DNA of 22,729 bases from a virus (taxonomy: Duplodnaviria > Heunggongvirae > Uroviricota > Caudoviricetes): the IMG/VR virus record IMGVR_UViG_2529293062_000009; one strand, given 5' to 3'. Position numbers and translations under genes: made by a program. Below are positions 1 through 10,256 of the stretch, piece after piece (position 1 is the first letter of the stretch; each line of letters begins with the position of its first letter). A model generated the notes under the pieces. It made no database searches, had not been told where the DNA came from, and saw only the letters and a program-made list of their open reading frames with translations.

Positions 1-1094
1 TGAGGCAACATGATTTCAGCAGCAGAGAAACCGGCTCTCATTGCATCCAATTCATCATCTGTAGGTGTTCTCGCTGTAGTACCGTTTTCAGATGCTGTAA
101 ATAGAATAATGTTATTGCCATCGATATTATTACTTAGCAACGATGGACTGTGAGTGCTAATGATGATTTGCTTTTGATTTCGAGCACCTTTAAGCGTGTT
201 TTCAATGATTTCAGGTATAAATTTCACAATTTCACTGTTCAAAGATAATTCAGGTTCTTCCATTAAAAGTAGCTGTCTTTTCTCAAGAAGTGACCACATC
301 AAACCGATTAAACGTAATGTTCCATCTGAAAACTGCTCTTCTTTTTGCCATCCAGCATTTGGCCTCCAGTGCTCGTACCTTGCTTCTAAGTGTGGTTGCC
401 CTGATTCATCTCTTTCAAAGCGTAACTCTTTAAACTGCGGAACAGCAATAGATAGCCCTGCTTGTATTTTTTTTAGCCAGGCATCTCTGGTTCGTGTTTG
501 AGTATTTGCTAATCGGTCAAGAAACCCTTGTCCAAATGGGTCATCATCTATTTTATTAACCCCAATTTCTTTGGCGAATTTGAGCAACTGTGGAACTATA
601 TGCAAGTATGTAACAGATGTGAAGAAATCTGAAATCACTCTAAAATTTTGATTTGCTAAAATTTGCTCAAGATGTGTTTGAGTCAACTGAACAGCATCAG
701 CATGATCATGAGCATTGGGGCGGCTCAATATATGCTCACCATTTTTATATACATTTTCACTAGTGACGTGAATTAACTGTTTCCCTCGGCCAGATGCCTT
801 GAAAATAAGTTCATAAATCCACTCGTTATCGTCTTCCTCAAAATATATGGTTATACCTACTTCGGTATCATTTCTCGCTTGAAGACAACGGAGTTTTGTT
901 ATGCCACCTCTATCATTGACCGCTTTTTGTAAACCACCACCATCTCTACAAATATCACTCATAAAGCGAAAGACATCAAGGAAGTTTGATTTACCTACAG
1001 CATTTGGCCCTATGATGTAAACACGGTCATGAAGAGGAACATCAATATTCCTGAAGTTTTTCCAATTTTTCAGTTTTAATCGAGTAATATTCAT
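1..1094 (-). CDS. ABC/AAA-type ATPase (OLD/AriA/PtuA-like superfamily), 3' end truncated by window; candidate defence component
   Basis: Minus-strand ORF with ATG at 1094..1092, SD AAGAGG upstream, running past position 1 (about 364 codons in window). Translation starts MNITRLKLKNWKNFRNIDVPLHDRVYIIGPNAVGKSNF (Walker A GPNAVGKS) and contains LLLMEEPE (Walker B-like) and IIISTHSP (H-loop-like). The start lies 1 nt after the cI stop codon. Confidence 0.7.
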   Translation of the reverse strand, partial: MNITRLKLKNWKNFRNIDVPLHDRVYIIGPNAVGKSNFLDVFRFMSDICRDGGGLQKAVNDRGGITKLRCLQARNDTEVGITIYFEEDDNEWIYELIFKASGRGKQLIHVTSENVYKNGEHILSRPNAHDHADAVQLTQTHLEQILANQNFRVISDFFTSVTYLHIVPQLLKFAKEIGVNKIDDDPFGQGFLDRLANTQTRTRDAWLKKIQAGLSIAVPQFKELRFERDESGQPHLEARYEHWRPNAGWQKEEQFSDGTLRLIGLMWSLLEKRQLLLMEEPELSLNSEIVKFIPEIIENTLKGARNQKQIIISTHSPSLLSNNIDGNNIILFTASENGTTARTPTDDELDAMRAGFSAAEIMLP

Positions 1095-3366: not shown

Positions 3367-3593
3367 TGGCTGATGCAATGGATCTCGTACAGCAGCGCGT
3401 TGAAGAAGAACGCCAACGCCATATCCGTGCTGCCCGTGCCAAAACGCCGGGCGTGTCCCGCGTGCTTTGCGTTGAGTGTGAAGCGCCAATTCCGCCAGCA
3501 CGCCGCCGTGCCATTCCGGGTGTGCAGCTTTGCATTACCTGTCAGGAAATCGCAGAGCTGAAAGGCAAACATTACAACGGAGGTGCTGTATGA
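3366..3593 (+). CDS. TraR/DksA-family C4 zinc-finger protein
   Basis: 75 aa with CxxC-N17-CxxC (CVECEAPIPPARRRAIPGVQLCITC); such a protein is typical of P2-like early operons. Confidence 0.7.
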   Translation: MADAMDLVQQRVEEERQRHIRAARAKTPGVSRVLCVECEAPIPPARRRAIPGVQLCITCQEIAELKGKHYNGGAV

Positions 3594-4444
3594 GCACCAT
3601 CCTGAAATGGGCAGGAAATAAAACCGCCATAATGTCCGAACTGAAAAAGCATCTTCCTGCTGGCCCGCGACTGGTTGAACCTTTCGCGGGTTCCTGTGCA
3701 GTGATGATGGAGACGGATTACCCCAGCTATCTTGTTGCGGATATTAATCCTGATTTAATCAACCTCTATAAAAAGGTTGCTGCTGATTGTGAGGCGTTTA
3801 TATCTCGTGCCAGAGCTTTATTTGAGGAAGCAAACAGGGAGGTGGCTTATTACAACATAAGGCAGGAGTTTAATTACTCCACTGAAATTACTGATTTCAT
3901 GAAAGCGGTATATTTCCTGTATCTCAATCGTCACGGTTACCGTGGTTTATGTCGCTATAACAAGAGCGGGCATTTCAACATTCCCTACGGTAATTATAAA
4001 AATCCGTATTTCCCTGAAAAAGAAATTCGCGCATTTGCAGAGAAAGCCCAGCGGGCAACGTTTATCTGCGCCAGCTTTGATGAAACGCTGGCGATGTTGA
4101 AGGTGGGGGATGTGGTGTATTGCGATCCGCCTTATGACGGTACGTTTTCCGGCTATCACACTGATGGTTTCACTGAAGATGATCAGTATCACCTGGCATC
4201 CATTCTTGAACATCGGTCATCAGAAGGACATCCGGTCATTGTTTCTAACAGTAACACGTCTTTGACCCGGTCCCTTTATCGTAATTTCACTCACCACTAC
4301 ATCAGGGCGAAACGCAGCATCGGCGTTGCAGCGGGGGAGGGAAAATTTGCAACAGAGATGATTGCCACTAAATCTGCTAATTGGTTTAGTGCCGATTTTA
4401 GTAGGGGACGTGACTCTACTGTTATTTTCGGGGTGCAAGTGTGA
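3590..4444 (+). CDS. dam: Dam-family DNA N6-adenine methyltransferase
   Basis: ATG 3590 with SD GGAGGTG, overlapping the upstream stop (ATGA). N-terminal ILKWAGNK motif (Dam FxKWAGGK-like) and catalytic DPPY (CDPPYDGTF). Confidence 0.85.
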
Positions 4445-5271
4445 AAGAAATGCACCACGGAATTCATCATTTCCATGGGACGCCTGTCTGGGGAAGTGCT
4501 GGCGACGTTCATCGTATTGCGGTGAGCGGAGCTGGCGCTTTCGTCTCCTATGTACGACCAGATCAGATTGCGGCGTCCATTCAGCACGCTCAGGTCGTCG
4601 GCATTGATAACGGCGCATTTTCTGCATGGGTGCGTGGGCTAAAAATTAACTGGAGTGATTTTTATAAATGGCTCCTGAACTATTACCACCATCCTAAGGT
4701 CGCTTTTTTTGTCATTCCTGATGTTGTGGACGGAGGTGAACGTGACAATGATGCCCTGATAAACGAAGTTCCGAAAATGTTCTACGGGAAGGCAACTCCC
4801 GTCTGGCATCTGCACGAGTCAATCGATCGGCTTATCGAGCTATGTCGTGAATGGCCTCGTGTCTGCTTTGGATCGTCTGGTGAATATGCGGCTATCAGAA
4901 CTGCGCACTGGCATCGTCGTATGCAGGACGCTTTTGAAGCAATTTATTGCCGACACAATTTCAAAACAGCTGTTCATGGTTTGCGCATGCTTGACGGTCG
5001 TGTGTTGGGAAATTACCCACTGGCGACTGCCGACAGTACAAATCTTGCCTGCAATGTCCCCAAATTTAATAGCAAATATCCTGAGCTGACGCGGGCTATT
5101 CAGGAGGCTGAGTATTCGCGCAATCTGACGGAAAAGGAGCTGAAAGCTGTCATTCTGAAAAACCGTTGCGCAATTTTAAAAGGTGCAATTGAAGCTGTTC
5201 GCCCACCTTCAGTTTCTGATTGGCTGTCGAATGGTTTGCAGCCTTCACAGCTCGAACTGGAGATTGCGTAA
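4441..5271 (+). CDS. hypothetical early protein, possibly TGT-fold (DpdA-like) DNA-modification enzyme
   Basis: 276-aa ORF; start GTG 4441 (overlapping the dam stop) or ATG 4450. Weak by-eye resemblance to tRNA-guanine transglycosylase motifs (TPVWG; IDNGAFS vs DSGGFQ; FFVIPD vs FDECT; FGSSGE vs GGLAVGE). Function not established. Confidence 0.4.
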
Positions 5272-7643
5272 TGAACTACAGCTATTCCTGGAATGCTGAG
5301 AAAAAAGCAATCAATCCTTACGTAGAGACGGAAGAGCAATCTTCAGTTTCTGCGCTTTCAAACCTGATCGCTCTGTACGCTGCCGATAACGAGCAGGAAC
5401 AGCTGCGCCGCGAGGCACTGAGTGATCAGGTCTGGGAGCGTTATTTCTTTAATGAATCCCGTGATCCTGTCCAGCGCGAAATGGAGCAGGATAAGCTCAT
5501 TAGTCGGGCAAAGCTGGCGCATGAGCAGCAGCGTTTTAATCCAGATATGGTCATTCTGGCGGACGTTAATGCCCAGCCTTCCCATATCAGCAAGCCACTG
5601 ATGCAACGTATTGAATACTTCAGCAGCCTGGGCAGGCCAAAGGCTTATTCCCGCTATTTGCGTGAGACGATTAAGCCATGTCTGGAACGGCTGGAGCATG
5701 TACGCGACTGTCAGCTATCCACTTCTTTTCGCTTTATGGCAAGCCATGAAGGGCTGGACGGCCTGCTGATCCTGCCTGAAATGAGTCAGGATCAGGTGAA
5801 ACGCCTGTCCACCCTGGTAGCTGCGCATATGAGCATGTGCCTTGATGCAGCTTGTGGCGATTTGTATGTCACCGATGACGTTAAGCCAGAAGAAATCCGC
5901 AAGACATGGGAAAAGGTGGCAGCGGAAACCCTGCGTCTGGATGTCATCCCGCCTGCGTTTGAGCAACTCCGCCGGAAAAGAAACCGCCGTAAACCCGTGC
6001 CCTATGAACTCATTCCGGGTTCGCTGGCGCGTATGTTGTGCGCTGACTGGTGGTACCGGAAATTATGGAAGATGCGTTGCGAATGGCGGGAAGAGCAGTT
6101 GCGTGCTGTCTGCCTGGTCAGCAAAAAAGCATCTCCCTATGTCAGCTATGAAGCCGTGATGCATAAACGTGAGCAGCGCCGTAAGTCGCTGGAGTTTTTT
6201 CGTTCTCATGAACTGGTGAACGAAGACGGCGACACGCTGGACATGGAGGATGTGGTAAACGCCAGCAGCAGCAACCCTGCGCATCGCCGCAATGAGATGA
6301 TGGCCTGTGTTAAAGGCCTGGAGCTTATCGCGGAAATGCGCGGTGACTGCGCCGTTTTCTACACCATCACCTGTCCGTCACGTTTCCATTCCACGCTAAA
6401 TAATGGCAGGCCCAACCCAACTTGGACAAATGCGACGGTAAGACAAAGCAGTGATTATCTGGTCGGCATGTTTGCTGCATTTCGTAAGGCGATGCACAAA
6501 GCCGGATTGCGGTGGTATGGCGTGCGGGTGGCTGAGCCGCATCATGACGGTACAGTTCACTGGCACCTGTTGTGTTTTATGCGCAAAAAAGACCGCCGCG
6601 CCATCACTGCATTACTGCGTAAGTTTGCCATCCGTGAAGACCGCGAGGAACTGGGCAATAACACTGGGCCGCGCTTTAAGTCTGAGTTGATTAACCCGCG
6701 CAAAGGTACGCCAACAAGCTACATCGCGAAATACATCAGTAAGAACATTGACGGGCGTGGTCTGGCTGGCGAGATCAGCAAGGAAACGGGGAAATCCCTG
6801 CGTGATAATGCTGAATACGTTAATGCCTGGGCGTCTCTGCATCGTGTTCAGCAATTCCGCTTCTTTGGCATTCCGGGGCGTCAGGCTTACCGTGAACTGC
6901 GATTGCTGGCTGGTCAGGCGGCAAGGCAACAGGGGGACAAAAAAGCAGGTGCGCCGGTACTGGATAACCCGCGCCTTGATGCCATCCTGGCTGCTGCTGA
7001 TGCTGGTTGTTTTGCCACCTACATCATGAAGCAGGGCGGCGTACTGGTTCCCCGCAAATATCACCTCATCAGAACCGCTTATGAAATCAACGAAGAGCCG
7101 ACCGCCTATGGCGATCACGGCATTCGTATTTATGGCATCTGGTCACCTATTGCAGAGGGCAAGATCTGCACTCATGCCGTGAAGTGGAAAATGGTTCGTA
7201 AGGCCGTTGATGTTCAGGAGGCGGCAGCCGACCAGGGCGCTTGCGCCCCTTGGACTCGTGGCAATAACTGTCCCCTTGCTGAAAATTTGAACCAACAGGA
7301 GAAAGATAAATCAGCTGATGGGGACCCCAGAACGGACATTACCAGCATGGATGACAAGGAGTTGCACGAATACCTGCACAGTATGAGCAAAAAAGAGCGC
7401 CGGGAACTGGCAGCAAGGTTACGCCTGGTGAAACCGAAACGGCGTAAAGACTACAAACAGCGAATTACAGACCATCAGCGACTGCAGCTCGTGTATGAGC
7501 TGAAGTCCAGAGGATTTGATGGCAGCGAGAAAGAGGTCGATTTACTCCTTCGCGGAGGCAGTATTCCGTCAGGAGCAGGCCTGCGTATCTTCTATCGGAA
7601 CCAGCGTTTGCAGGAAGATGATCAGTGGCGGAACCTGTATTAA
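5271..7643 (+). CDS. A: Replication initiation endonuclease (P2 gpA-type rolling-circle HUH nickase)
   Basis: 790 aa from ATG 5271 (TAATG overlap with the upstream stop). HUH-like [10 protein letters not shown] and tyrosine motif YIAKYISK. Size and position as P2 A (about 761 aa as recalled). Confidence 0.88.
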
Positions 7644-7735
7644 TTACGCGGGTTAACAATTCGTACTCTTAATAATACCAGGCATATCAGGCTGATGAAC
7701 GTAAAAAATCGTTTTACATCAGTAAGATTATTATA

Positions 7736-7755
7736 TACTGTAAATATAAACAGTG
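7736..7755 (+). promoter_or_regulatory. LexA (SOS) box overlapping a promoter upstream of the small-ORF/DinI-like pair
   Basis: TACTGTAAATATAAACAGTG, i.e. CTGT-N8-ACAG with an AT-rich spacer (consensus TACTGTATATATATACAGTA); TTTACA-like -35 just upstream at about 7713..7718. Confidence 0.7.
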
Positions 7756-7796
7756 GTTATGCATACAGCGTTGCGTGTGGTGTCATAGGAGGAAAG

Positions 7797-7985
7797 ATGC
7801 AGGACTATTTTTTGGAGTCTTTGAAGCTCCAGCGCATTGATTTTTTTCTTAAGCTTGTAGCGGCTAGTGAGTGTAGTGATGAAGAGAAGGGGCTGGCTCT
7901 GCAGTGGGTTTCTGAATTGACTGATGAACTCATGGCAAAAATCAGAACCCACGAATACAACCGCTCAATGGATGTCATCAGCTGA
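7797..7985 (+). CDS. small SOS-regulated protein, candidate Tum-like antirepressor
   Basis: ATG 7797 with SD AGGAGG 7787..7792; 62 aa (MQDYFLESLKLQRIDFF...); directly downstream of the LexA box and upstream of the DinI-like gene. Confidence 0.5.
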   Translation: MQDYFLESLKLQRIDFFLKLVAASECSDEEKGLALQWVSELTDELMAKIRTHEYNRSMDVIS

Positions 7986-7995
7986 GGTGACTTTT

Positions 7996-8229
7996 ATGCG
8001 CATTGAAATAATGATCGATAAAGAGCAGAAGATTAGCCAGTCTACCCTGGACGCCCTTGAATCCGAGCTTTACCGCAATCTGCGCCCCCTGTATCCCAAA
8101 ACGGTAATTCGCATTCGCAAAGGTAGCTCTAACGGTGTGGAACTAACCGGACTGCAACTGGACGAAGAAAGAAAACAAGTGATGAAAATTATGCAGAAGG
8201 TGTGGGAAGACGACAGCTGGCTGCATTAA
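7996..8229 (+). CDS. DinI-family protein
   Basis: ATG 7996 with SD GAGGTG; 77 aa, MRIEIMIDKEQKIS...KVWEDDSWLH, resembling E. coli DinI (MRIEVTIAK...TWESADDWF). Confidence 0.75.
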   Translation: MRIEIMIDKEQKISQSTLDALESELYRNLRPLYPKTVIRIRKGSSNGVELTGLQLDEERKQVMKIMQKVWEDDSWLH

Positions 8230-8364
8230 GAAACGTTGCTGGCGTCTGAACTTGCTTCTGGCGTCAGCAAGGTTGAACAACGAGCCCTTGCGAGGCGTTA
8301 GCTCTGTAGTGCATGTCTATGCCGCATGAGATCGCATGATCGTTTGAGGATCGTTTTTGCTAAG

Positions 8365-8388
8365 GCCCGCCAGAACTGGCGGGCTTTT
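8365..8388 (+). terminator. Rho-independent terminator downstream of the DinI-like gene
   Basis: GC-rich inverted repeat GCCCGCCAG / CTGGCGGGC with a short loop, followed by TTTT. Confidence 0.6.
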
Positions 8389-8481
8389 GCGTAGATCATG
8401 CAGGTGCATGAAAACCACTACATAAAGCGGGCAGGCGTGGCGGGGATACGAGCGCGCGTTAAGCCATATAAGAGTTATATA

Positions 8482-8510
8482 TTGATTTGATTGCTGGACA
8501 TACATACAGT
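8482..8510 (+). promoter_or_regulatory. putative sigma70 promoter for the kinase operon
   Basis: TTGATT, 17-nt spacer, TACAGT, about 95 nt upstream of ATG 8605 in an AT-rich tract; by-eye match only. Confidence 0.3.
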
Positions 8511-8604
8511 ATCGCTCTATCATCTAATAAATCTTAGGGTATTTGACAATGTTTGGATAAAATGGAACCTAACTTATTCATAATCCGCTAAACAGGGATG
8601 TCAG

Positions 8605-9519
8605 ATGCCATACCAATTGGTAGAGCTTAGCCCCGTAGCTAACGATCTTGAACAGTTAGGAACCAAAGAGAAGTTTTGGTTCTATTTCTCCGATGACACT
8701 GTAAATTTGCAGTTGTTTAAGTACTCTAGGCCAGGTACTGGCGAGCATTGGTCTGAAAAGTGTGCTGCTGAGTTATGTCATTTGCTTAACATTCCACATG
8801 CTAGCTATGATTTGGCGCGATACAATGGTCGATTCGGTGTGGTGACTCAGAATATCATTCCATCTGGTTTCCGGATGGTAATGGGAAATGAAGTGCTTCA
8901 CAGTTCGACATTCGATTATCCTGGGCCTTTACAAGCCGGGGAAAAGCCGGTAAGGGTCAGAGAACACACTGTCACAAGGGTCTTGGGTTGTTTAGATAGG
9001 GAATCTATCAAGCCTCCTCCGAGTGTATATGATCTAACCGGGCTAAATGCAGCAGATGTATTTTGTGGATATTTGATGCTCGATGCACTTGTGAGTAATC
9101 AAGATCGCCACCATGAAAATTGGGCAATCATGCTTAACAATGAAACTGGTGAGCAGTTTTTGTGTCCAACATACGATCATGCCGCTAGTTTAGGAAGGGA
9201 GATGTTAGATGATGAGCGTAACGAACGGCTTAATACTAAAGATAAAAATCGACAAATCCCATGTTTTGTAAGAAAAGCTCGCTCTGAGCTATTCAAAGCA
9301 AAAACTGATAAAAAGCCCTTGCTGACTGTTGAAGCATTTCAACATGCAGTTGAAGGGAGAGTTGCCGCTCGCGACCATTGGTTAGGTAAGTTGAGCGTTT
9401 TAACAGAAGATTCCATTACAGATGTGTTTAACCAAGTGCCTTCATCGTGTATATCCGACAGTGCACGTAGATTTGCAACGTTAATGGTAATGGAAAATCG
9501 CAGAAGGTTACTAGAATGA
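8605..9519 (+). CDS. HipA-like Ser/Thr protein kinase (compact, HipA C-terminal kinase core)
   Basis: 304 aa. Gly-rich loop-like GTKEKFWF (residues 19-26), catalytic DxHxxN as D167-R-H169-H-E-N172 within LVSNQDRHHENWAIM (nt about 9094..9120), downstream CPTYDHAASLG resembling the HipA Mg-binding Asp motif. Stop overlaps the next start (ATGA). Confidence 0.75.
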   Translation: MPYQLVELSPVANDLEQLGTKEKFWFYFSDDTVNLQLFKYSRPGTGEHWSEKCAAELCHLLNIPHASYDLARYNGRFGVVTQNIIPSGFRMVMGNEVLHSSTFDYPGPLQAGEKPVRVREHTVTRVLGCLDRESIKPPPSVYDLTGLNAADVFCGYLMLDALVSNQDRHHENWAIMLNNETGEQFLCPTYDHAASLGREMLDDERNERLNTKDKNRQIPCFVRKARSELFKAKTDKKPLLTVEAFQHAVEGRVAARDHWLGKLSVLTEDSITDVFNQVPSSCISDSARRFATLMVMENRRRLLE

Positions 9520-10256
9520 CTAATACAAACTCCGTTTACGTCGCATGGCAGGCACCAGATACCAGAGACTGGCATGTTGTTGGTAACTTGCAAGAGCGCA
9601 AATCGGGGTATGTTTTCAGGTATACCAAAGGTGCTCTTAAATCTTCTAAATTTACAAAGTTTAGCGGCATGAGTGATGTTCGTGAAACTTATGTATCGGA
9701 AGAATTGTTTCCTCTTTTTAAAAATCGCCTTTTATCACCGAGACGTCCAGAGTATCCGAGTTTCATTAAATGGCTTGGATTTGAAGAAGATAAGGTAAAT
9801 CCTATCGATATTCTTGCTCGCTCGGGAGGCTTACGAAGCACTGATCAGCTGCAGATTTTCAAAAAAATTGATTTTGATTCTGATGGTAACTTTGAGCATT
9901 TTTTCTTCTTACATGGACTTGGTTACTTGAATAGCTTAGCTAATGCTCGTGTATCTGAATTGAAACCGGGGCAAATTTTGCGTCTTTGCTTGGATCTTCA
10001 AAATGAATACGATGGGGATGCTGTTGTCGTTCGTGCAGATAAACCAGCTGAAATCGTTGGTTACTGCCCTAGGTATTTAAGTAATGACATCAAGAAGATG
10101 TTATTGGATGATCCAAAATCAATCACTTTAACGGTCGAAAAGATTAGCGATGATGCTCCTCATAACTATCGGTTATTATGTAAATTATCAGGGGTACTAA
10201 GCCAAGCCTGTCAATCGACGCTGATTCCTCAAGATGAGTTTGAACCTATTGAGTAA
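9516..10256 (+). CDS. HIRAN-motif protein (C-terminal HIRAN-like domain), partner of the HipA-like kinase
   Basis: 246 aa, translationally coupled to the kinase gene. C-terminal LRLCLDLQNEYDGDAVVVRADKPAEIVGYCPRYLSN matches the HIRAN pattern (NPYDxNAIxV...VGYIPR); N-terminal part unassigned. Confidence 0.55.
   Translation: MTNTNSVYVAWQAPDTRDWHVVGNLQERKSGYVFRYTKGALKSSKFTKFSGMSDVRETYVSEELFPLFKNRLLSPRRPEYPSFIKWLGFEEDKVNPIDILARSGGLRSTDQLQIFKKIDFDSDGNFEHFFFLHGLGYLNSLANARVSELKPGQILRLCLDLQNEYDGDAVVVRADKPAEIVGYCPRYLSNDIKKMLLDDPKSITLTVEKISDDAPHNYRLLCKLSGVLSQACQSTLIPQDEFEPIE

Follow-up and report, generated by a model that had tools for sequence, protein, structure and literature searches.

In phage 186, Tum is a LexA-regulated inhibitor of the CI repressor and has been used to induce the prophage (PMC7708051). 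The 186 sequence record includes an SOS promoter (p95), a LexA site, Tum itself, annotated as 'inhibits CI DNA binding', and a truncated DinI-like Tum that begins at an internal GTG. Lemire et al. 2011 (PMC3121763) state that a stop codon splits tum in both Fels-2 and PSP3 and that the PSP3 antirepressor is the product of the upstream gene; as far as it could be traced, the evidence that a split tumA acts as an antirepressor is a personal communication on PSP3 that has been relayed through two papers (PMC3121763). The PSP3 record names both tumA ('similar to 5' end 186 tum; UV induction of prophage') and tumB, and the record of Fels-2, a prophage of Salmonella LT2, labels STM2728 a 'hypothetical protein'. 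Bunny 2002, as summarised elsewhere, found that every lexA-null survivor had lost Fels-2 (PMC12626290), and the literature attributes the lethality of lexA-null mutations to this prophage. The two-gene tumA/tumB arrangement is already known, and the underlying biology (186 Tum and the split genes of PSP3 and Fels-2) goes back to publications of about 2002-2011 and is unsurprising to a specialist.

The window analyzed here, meaning the whole stretch of 22,729 nt (22.7 kb), is a Fels-2/186-like prophage of the P2 family. Its gene set is 186/Fels-2-like and comprises CI, an Apl/Cox-like protein, CII (69% identical to 186 CII), and the replication gene A product gpA (Pfam Phage_GPA, 4.5e-128). Gene A ends at position 7643, and immediately 3' of it, on the same strand and beginning at 7713, is a small two-gene module that occupies the same slot as the LexA-controlled tum of 186. 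This post-gene-A layout is common to the window, 186, PSP3, Fels-2, and vB_EcoM-813R9. The module is very probably the tumA-tumB form of the 186 tum locus, and would thus be the SOS operon that wakes this Fels-2/186-like prophage after DNA damage. A preliminary description of the DNA had proposed an SOS-controlled module of the Tum type serving as the induction trigger, and every part of that proposal that can be examined by sequence (position, LexA box, both open reading frames, and the stop codon between them) holds.

The LexA box and the predicted promoter of the tum operon

A 20 bp LexA (SOS) box, TACTGTAAATATAAACAGTG, was located by its sequence pattern at positions 7736–7755, and is given without strand. 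Its core, CTGTAAATATAAACAG (7738–7753), is the sole CTGT-N8-ACAG in the window, and such a core is not significant by itself, with 0.38 occurrences expected by chance and a match present in 31/100 shuffled sequences. The extended form TACTGT-W8-ACAGT (7736–7754) is found in none of the 100 shuffles, even when two mismatches are allowed, and the 20-mer agrees at 17/20 positions with the palindromic LexA consensus TACTGTATATATATACAGTA. These comparisons bear out the near-consensus LexA box that had been described as overlapping the promoter of the first open reading frame.

The predicted tum operon promoter spans 7713–7741 on the plus strand, with a -35 hexamer TTTACA (7713–7718) and a -10 hexamer TACTGT (7736–7741) separated by a 17 nt spacer; the -10 hexamer forms the left half of the LexA box. 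It was read from the sequence and placed by analogy with the annotated 186 p95, in which the -10 hexamer is likewise TACTGT and constitutes the first six bases of the LexA site (186 coordinates 29044–29063). A generic sigma-70 promoter scan of the window did not call the tum promoter, because its -10 hexamer has only 3/6 consensus bases. The LexA box aligns with its counterparts in Fels-2, in PSP3, and in p95, the SOS-dependent promoter of 186, and a TTTACA-like -35 hexamer is retained in the relatives. A CTGT-N8-[AC]CAG box is positioned 5' of tumA in every intact related locus for which upstream sequence is available, and the only related locus with a degenerate box is itself decayed (L036). 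In a lysogen, host LexA bound at 7736–7755 would cover the -10 hexamer and keep the promoter shut; following DNA damage, activated RecA would promote LexA self-cleavage and the promoter would fire.

The tumA and tumB genes

The first gene of the module, tumA (ORF1; 7797–7985, plus strand), encodes a predicted antirepressor of 62 aa of the Fels-2 type, with an ATG at 7797, a TGA stop at 7983–7985, and the Shine-Dalgarno (SD) sequence AGGAGG at 7788–7793. It is followed by a gap of 10 nt (GGTGACTTTT) and then by tumB (ORF2; 7996–8229, plus strand), a 77-aa DinI-family gene with an ATG at 7996, a TAA stop at 8227–8229, and the SD sequence GAGGTG at 7984–7989, which spans the tumA stop codon. Both genes, their spacing, and a strong SD for each are present as first reported. 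Translation of the two genes is probably coupled, given the 10 nt spacing and the overlap of the tumB SD with the tumA stop. The automatic scan flagged a terminator-like hairpin where the two genes meet (7974–7991), which was considered as a translational coupling device and dropped, as its pairing is not conserved in the relatives. A second terminator-like hairpin is predicted after tumB at 8362–8389 on the plus strand, where the RNA fold of 8225–8400 has an 11 bp stem with seven G-C pairs, a 4 nt loop, and UUUU; its position is analogous to that of t95a in 186. An automatic terminator scan passed over it, since no more than four Ts make up the T-run, and an Rfam scan of 7500–8700 found no RNA family, the sole match being a chance one to an lncRNA (E 0.47).

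ORF2 matches Pfam DinI (PF06183) over the whole profile (1–63 of 63; E 6.6e-23, 81.3 bits against a gathering score of 24.2 bits), as well as the solved structure of DinI (PDB 1GHH; E 2.7e-6, residues 1–75). It is 100% identical to Fels-2 STM2726.1, 78% identical to PSP3 TumB, and about 30% identical to E. coli DinI, and the same sequence is in Swiss-Prot as 'DinI-like protein in retron Ec67'. It is also 41–42% identical to residues 71–145 of 186 Tum, in an alignment that starts exactly at the internal GTG from which 186 makes its truncated DinI-like Tum; the DinI-like C-terminal part that the preliminary description ascribed to Tum is therefore correct, and the literature agrees. The score of ORF2 against the NCBIfam DinI equivalog model NF007893 is 42.7 bits, below the cutoff of 111 bits. 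By these sequence scores, TumB is a phage-borne DinI paralogue and not an equivalog of chromosomal DinI. It most likely acts on RecA filaments, tuning the strength or duration of the SOS signal, and would be an accessory and not the trigger.

The ORF1 product is 98.4% identical to Fels-2 STM2728 and matches the PHROG profile phrog_698 (E 3.6e-38). BLASTP aligned ORF1 with neither 186 Tum nor PSP3 TumA, and the case for homology was therefore made with profiles. ORF1 also matches the families of Tum, phrog_8554 (2.4e-8), and of PSP3 TumA, phrog_1993 (2.2e-3), and the relationship is reciprocal in that residues 1–70 of 186 Tum match both phrog_8554 (3.4e-12) and the ORF1 family phrog_698 (E 5.9e-6). 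Alignment by hhalign pairs residues 1–43 of ORF1 with residues 1–43 of the 186 Tum 1–70 segment (E 7e-5), with a weak result against the PSP3 family alone (E 0.058), and these profile comparisons involve shallow alignments with Neff of about 1.5. Sequence identity between ORF1 and the 186 Tum N-terminus is ~21%, with Cys26 and Ala34-Leu35 invariant. At the profile level only, ORF1 shows homology to the stretch of 186 Tum that carries the antirepressor function (residues about 1–45). No match to ORF1 was found in Pfam, NCBIfam, PADLOC, or the PDB sequences. An AF2 model of TumA predicts a helical hairpin (pLDDT 91.6), for which a Foldseek search of the PDB gave nothing at E <= 0.001 and returned only generic coiled-coil hairpins.

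Of 36 loci drawn from about 15 enterobacterial genera, nearly all have tumA as an intact 62-aa open reading frame, and strong purifying selection is indicated by a median dN/dS of about 0.06 over 33 distinct sequences, with synonymous divergence saturated. The tumB gene is absent from 13 of 33 enterobacterial loci, and these 13 keep tumA; the invariant partner of the LexA box is tumA, not tumB. Together with the kinship to the Tum N-terminus, this conservation supports the earlier suggestion that the small open reading frame is a candidate antirepressor. The stop codon between the two parts, whose conservation had been raised as a point to check, is indeed kept in the relatives. To call the module a split Tum may have the direction wrong; because separate genes are the usual condition, tumA frequently stands without tumB, and 186 still has an internal SD with a start codon, it is the 146-aa Tum of 186 that looks like the fusion. 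The module is found in 1144/5426 complete E. coli genomes and the exact 62-aa protein on >1000 contigs, where the database labels are 'hypothetical protein' or, in error, 'levan regulatory protein'. The practical value of the analysis is in annotation, both of this mislabelled protein and of the neighboring DinI gene, for which many annotations choose a start that gives 101 aa and overlaps tumA.

The CI repressor as the presumed target of TumA

The presumed target of TumA is the 186-type immunity repressor encoded by cI at 1099–1662 on the minus strand, which matches Pfam Phage_CI_repr (1e-28) and Phage_CI_C (1.7e-26). A Pfam search found no S24 peptidase (Peptidase_S24) domain in it, and without a self-cleavage domain in CI, SOS induction requires an antirepressor. 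We propose that TumA, as a 62-aa helical hairpin, would bind this CI and block its binding to the operator, such that the early lytic promoter would be derepressed, with excision and lytic growth to follow. The module would thereby explain the DNA-damage response of a prophage whose repressor cannot cleave itself, and is relevant to predicting which P2-like prophages are inducible by SOS-triggering antibiotics.

The CI proteins are considerably more variable than TumA. Over its full length the window CI is 30% identical to 186 CI and 35% identical to Fels-2 CI, and its best match among the phages of the collection is at no more than about 47% identity. Prophages with identical or near-identical TumA have CIs that are 35–49% identical overall to the window CI (47–49% for those whose TumA is 100% identical), and recognition of the window CI by TumA is therefore not guaranteed. 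A genuine SOS-expressed tumA-tumB operon could thus be a conserved cassette that is uncoupled from induction of this prophage, either because the divergent CI is not recognized or because TumA works only in trans on other resident prophages. Within the Fels-2 type, TumA identity and CI identity do not correlate (Spearman about 0), which is consistent with such an arrangement. We nonetheless consider it unlikely, since tumA is complete, retains its promoter and LexA box, and evolves under purifying selection. The N-terminal domain of the window CI is 62% identical to that of Fels-2, and its N-terminal helix-turn-helix (HTH) shares its class, and 56–78% identity, with the HTH domains of further prophages that carry a Fels-2-type TumA. 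Moreover, 27 loci as a rule combine a near-invariant TumA with a variable CI, a pattern that speaks for the conserved CI domain as the target of TumA.

In a larger set of loci, the type of TumA (Fels-2, 186, or PSP3) and the class to which the CI N-terminal domain belongs correspond in 166/170, with four exceptions, although this match could partly reflect shared ancestry and not functional coupling; the CI C-terminal domains are highly divergent. One exception is a prophage of Pantoea stewartii, in which a CI of the 186 class accompanies a TumA of the Fels-2 type. A literature search for the CI domain bound by Tum found nothing. It is possible, and we suggest it tentatively, that Fels-2-type TumA is a near-invariant broad-spectrum antirepressor that recognizes the conserved N-terminal HTH of many heteroimmune 186-type CIs and not one cognate repressor, that it could induce co-resident P2-like prophages of the same class in trans, and that tumB is a dispensable add-on. 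If so, prophage cross-talk of the kind described for the Gifsy phages would extend to P2-family prophages, through a module that about one in five complete E. coli genomes carries.

ORF1 could alternatively be a real SOS-induced small protein whose target is something other than CI, such as a host factor, RecA/LexA in concert with its DinI-like partner, or a competing phage or defense system, with prophage induction depending on something else. The weak, profile-level likeness to the 186 Tum N-terminus, a predicted fold (the helical hairpin) that is generic and has no informative neighbor among known structures, and database entries under the name 'hypothetical protein' are all compatible with this. 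The position, length, promoter, and LexA control are those of PSP3 tumA and the 186 Tum N-terminus, however, and the correspondence between TumA type and CI class, the constant association of tumA with the LexA box, and the LexA-dependent induction of Fels-2, set beside a window CI without a self-cleavage domain, all point to the repressor, making a different target very unlikely. Finally, that ORF1 is not a gene, and that the true product is the 101-aa DinI-family open reading frame at 7924–8229 preceded by a mere leader, is scarcely credible: many records do annotate such a protein from the ATG at 7924 within ORF1, but ORF1 has a consensus SD, a conserved length, its low dN/dS, and its own PHROG family, in alignments the start of the 77-aa frame coincides with M1 of E. 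coli DinI and PSP3 TumB and with the internal start in 186 Tum, and the region 5' of that start varies among relatives in sequence, stop codon, and spacing.

Relationship to described SOS modules

The closest described counterpart of the tumA-tumB operon is that of Fels-2 (STM2728/STM2726.1), which shares near-identical TumA and identical TumB proteins, an identical LexA box and promoter, the 10 nt gap, and the location after gene A. The two prophages differ in CI, as noted above, and in the cargo downstream, which consists of STM2726 and STM2723.1 in Fels-2 and of PDC-M03 genes in the window. PSP3 similarly has two genes behind a LexA box after gene A and a closely related TumB, but its leader is shorter than that of the window, its TumA belongs to a different family (phrog_1993, compared with phrog_698 in the window) and is 22% identical, and its CI is of another class, with 286 aa and a duplicated HTH.

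Phage 186 has the same order of elements, with a LexA-repressed promoter followed by an antirepressor part and then a DinI-like part, located after gene A and acting on a non-cleavable 186-type CI. It differs in that a linker of about 25 aa joins both parts in a single reading frame, the fused state being found in 77/80 of the 186-type loci, although 186 also translates the DinI-like part separately from its internal SD and GTG. The 186 operon runs on into orf97, whereas the tum operon of the window is followed by the terminator-like hairpin and then by unrelated defense cargo.

More distantly, TumB shares the PF06183 fold family and, by prediction, LexA control with the chromosomal DinI of E. 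coli (PDB 1GHH). The dinI-gfoA, dinI-gftA, and dinI-gfhA operons of Gifsy-1, -2, and -3 are also LexA-controlled and combine a DinI homologue with a small antirepressor directed against a non-cleavable repressor, and the Gifsy antirepressors can act in trans on other prophages (PMC3121763). They differ from the tumA-tumB module in that dinI is the first gene, the phages are lambdoid, and both the repressors and the antirepressor sequences are unrelated (PMC3121763).

Prophage context and operon anatomy

The window represents a 186/Fels-2-like prophage of the P2 family. Its minus-strand cI gene (1099-1662) has Pfam Phage_CI_repr and Phage_CI_C matches, with no S24 peptidase domain in the encoded repressor, and is followed by a small ORF assigned to the apl/cox position by location alone (1789-2010; no family match), cII (2043-2552; 69% identity to 186 CII), a Dam-like methylase ORF (3530-4444), and the large replication gene gpA (5220-7643), whose stop at 7643 lies upstream of the tum promoter. 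Downstream of the module there is a cargo slot, beyond which portal and terminase are encoded on the opposite strand. Over 7600-8400 the nearest phage records, at 99.1%, are vB_EcoM-813R9 and 500465-1, both E. coli phages, with many Klebsiella, Salmonella and Fels-2-like prophages ranked next.

The tum promoter is composed of a -35-like TTTACA read from the sequence (7713-7718) and, after a 17-nt spacer, a -10 hexamer TACTGT (7736-7741). The LexA box is a 20-mer, TACTGTAAATATAAACAGTG (7736-7755), in which both the CTGT and ACAG half-sites are present, the spacer is entirely A/T, and the palindromic consensus is matched at 17 of 20 positions. The bare CTGT-N8-ACAG core, present once in the window, is not rare (0.38 copies expected by chance); the extended form TACTGT-W8-ACAGT, with two mismatches tolerated, occurred in none of 100 dinucleotide-preserving shuffles. 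ORF1 (tumA; 7797-7985, 62 aa) has the Shine-Dalgarno (SD) sequence AGGAGG, and ORF2 (tumB; 7996-8229, 77 aa) starts 10 nt after it, with its own SD, GAGGTG, lying across the ORF1 stop. The region thus holds the near-consensus box, promoter, ORFs, 10-nt gap and SDs just as the preliminary description gave them. A G+C-rich hairpin followed by UUUU (8362-8389) looks like the terminator of the operon.

The stretch at ~8340-8460, which includes this hairpin, translates as ...AKARQNWRAFA*IMQVHENHYIKRAGVAGIRAR. It is kept in Pantoea/Erwinia prophages without tumB (L031, L034 and L035), where it lies just after tumA as an open ORF of 50-84 aa (MKSHDPKRISDAQARQYWRAFVYVMQVHENHYIKRAGVAGLRARA...), the window copy being broken by a TAG at 8392. 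It has no Rfam match; a conserved nucleotide element and the remnant of a small gene are both possible readings.

The P2-family cargo slot from tumB to the portal gene is filled by an overlapping pair of plus-strand genes (8605-9519 and 9516-10256) that match the PADLOC candidate defence system PDC-M03 and code for a HipA_C-like kinase (A protein, E 2e-122) and a HIRAN-domain protein with a HipA-N-like N-terminus (B protein, E 7e-93). These genes have their own promoter-like site (8495-8523); that read-through past the tumB terminator might also bring them in part under SOS regulation is speculation. A second defence-type cargo gene, on the minus strand and running off the left end of the window (1-1094), codes for an AAA/ABC-type ATPase (PADLOC HEC-01A, E 2.4e-151; weaker matches to AriA, AbiLi, GajA and Old) and adjoins cI in the place expected for the integrase; in vB_EcoM-813R9 an ATPase likewise occupies the slot adjoining cI.

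TumA and TumB as Tum homologues

ORF2 is a full-length member of the DinI family (Pfam E 6.6e-23), as had been proposed, and aligns with the solved E. coli DinI (1GHH) and with residues 71-145 of 186 Tum (41% identity), the latter alignment beginning exactly at the 186 internal GTG start. The second half of Tum is described as DinI-like by Lemire, Figueroa-Bossi and Bossi (2011, PMC3121763), in agreement with the preliminary description. Many public records, including Fels-2 in LT2, give the DinI-family gene as 101 aa (7924-8229), beginning at an ATG within tumA in another frame; the 77-aa start at 7996 is preferred on the strength of its SD and of its alignment with DinI, TumB and the 186 Tum internal start. 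Residue for residue, the 77-aa protein is Swiss-Prot DINIR_ECOLX, 'DinI-like protein in retron Ec67', and the Fels-2 record notes a Dam-like methylase similar to that of retron Ec67, equivalent to the window ORF at 3530-4444; these links make the window a relative of the prophage that carries retron Ec67.

Database records nearly always call ORF1 a 'hypothetical protein' and now and then a 'levan regulatory protein'. Its suggested likeness to 186 Tum is found by profile methods and not by pairwise comparison, as BLASTP of ORF1 against 186 Tum and PSP3 TumA gave no match. ORF1 is a member of phrog_698 (E 3.6e-38) with further matches to phrog_8554 (2.4e-8) and phrog_1993 (2.2e-3), residues 1-70 of 186 Tum match phrog_1993 (1.5e-23), phrog_8554 (3.4e-12) and phrog_698 (5.9e-6), and PSP3 TumA belongs to phrog_1993 (2.7e-32). 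With family alignments built from fetched loci, hhalign relates Fels-2-type TumA 1-43 to 186 Tum 1-43 (E 7e-5, probability 63%) and 186 Tum to PSP3 TumA (E 1e-5), the direct Fels-2-type to PSP3 comparison being weak (E 0.058). Cys26 and Ala34-Leu35 are invariant in the four-way TumA/Tum alignment. AF2, run on the single sequence, folds ORF1 confidently (pLDDT 91.6) into a hairpin of two helices, 2-23 and 28-61, the conserved Cys lying in the turn; Foldseek returned no informative neighbour for this model. We therefore regard ORF1 as a divergent homologue of the antirepressor part of Tum, and one of at least three sequence types.

Conservation of tumA, the LexA box and tumB

ORF1 is conserved in relatives. 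A genome scan for Fels-2-type tumA, using one genome per species, gave 33 loci (71-100% identity) in Escherichia, Citrobacter, Klebsiella, Enterobacter, Serratia, Pantoea, Erwinia, Tatumella and others. The gene is intact (56-72 aa, and 62 aa in 31) in 35 of 36 loci, with a consensus SD throughout, and the sole broken copy (L036) has also lost the LexA box. In all intact loci with upstream sequence, a box of the form CTGT-N8-ACAG or CTGT-N8-CCAG precedes tumA by 40-97 nt, and a -35 TTTACA-like hexamer is retained. The median pairwise dN/dS of tumA is 0.06, with dS saturated, and ORF1 is therefore protein-coding and strongly constrained. The module is very common, with 1144 carriers among 5426 complete E. 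coli genomes and the exact ORF1 protein on more than 1000 contigs, yet it is poorly annotated.

The stop codon separating tumA from tumB (TGA, TAA or TAG, with a gap of 9-12 nt) is always present in the Fels-2 type, among which we found no fused form; of 80 viral contigs with 186-type Tum, 77 have the fused form, and in all 80 PSP3-type loci tumA stands apart. Of the 33 genome loci with Fels-2-type tumA, 13 (L011, L015, L021, L025, L029-L036 and L038) lack tumB, and so do 36 of the 80 PSP3-type loci (L278-L357). In L015, L025 and L038 the tumA stop is directly followed by …GGAACGTTGCTGGCGT…, which resembles the stretch just past tumB in the window (8230-8250), as though through a clean insertion or deletion of tumB. 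Because tumB is often absent while tumA and the box persist, these two form the core and the DinI-like gene is optional. This optional status, the separate genes in relatives, and the internal SD and start codon kept in 186 tum suggest that 186 tum is a fusion, rather than the other loci being splits.

Repressor classes and known systems

We consider it highly probable that the module is a LexA-repressed operon in which TumA acts against CI and TumB is accessory. LexA would shut the operon by occluding the -10 hexamer, and the SOS response would lift this repression; TumA would then sequester the non-cleavable CI, derepressing the lytic promoter, and TumB would modulate RecA/SOS activity while being dispensable as a trigger.

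The CI closest to that of the window in the phage collection is 47% identical over its full length, and prophages with a TumA identical to the window's have CIs 47-49% identical to the window CI. By sequence, the window CI appears to be a distinct immunity type, the remaining early region being close to known phages; there is a small chance that the cassette and so divergent a CI are functionally uncoupled. Across 27 loci, Fels-2-type TumA is 67-100% identical (median 87%), whereas the CI C-terminal domains are 20-99% identical (median 31%) and the N-terminal HTH domains 33-100% (median 65%). The three TumA types (Fels-2, 186 and PSP3) match the CI N-terminal domain class in 166 of 170 loci, a raw co-occurrence uncorrected for phylogeny, with most CIs distinct and four exceptions (L027, from Pantoea stewartii, L245, L269 and L341). 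This match supports, and does not prove, recognition by TumA of the DNA-binding domain of a repressor class, which would permit action in trans on heteroimmune prophages; a target other than CI is improbable. That ORF1 is no gene and the 101-aa DinI annotation is correct is scarcely credible given the dN/dS of ORF1 and the start-site alignments favouring the 77-aa ORF2. The only mildly new elements are the three TumA types tracking CI N-terminal domain classes, a near-invariant TumA facing hypervariable CI C-terminal domains, and the dispensability of tumB.

The Fels-2 counterparts STM2728 and STM2726.1 are 98.4% identical to ORF1 and 100% identical to ORF2 respectively, the latter noted in its record as 'similar to TumB [PSP3]'. 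The PSP3 record describes tumA (60 aa) as "similar to 5' end 186 tum; UV induction of prophage" and tumB as "similar to dinI and 3' end of 186 tum". That of 186 includes the 146-aa Tum, glossed as 'expression repressed by LexA; inhibits CI DNA binding', the promoter p95 ('SOS-dependent transcription'), and truncated in-frame Tum products, to which it ascribes a modulating role in SOS induction and among which one starts at an internal GTG. In an alignment, the LexA boxes of Fels-2, PSP3, 186 and the window stay in register; the first six bases of the 186 site, TACTGT, are its -10 hexamer, and TACTGT likewise opens the window box. Lemire and colleagues (PMC3121763) describe tum in Fels-2 and PSP3 as interrupted by a stop codon, and for PSP3 they assign the antirepressor role to the first of the two genes. 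p95-tum has been employed as an SOS-driven inhibitor of 186 CI (PMC7708051), and viable lexA-null isolates had all lost Fels-2 (Bunny 2002, as summarised in PMC12626290). Since literature and records cover the Fels-2, PSP3 and 186 loci, the arrangement is already described: the split Tum-type module of the preliminary description was correctly read, and is the known tumA-tumB locus of Fels-2/PSP3-type phages, the window copy being essentially the Fels-2 allele.
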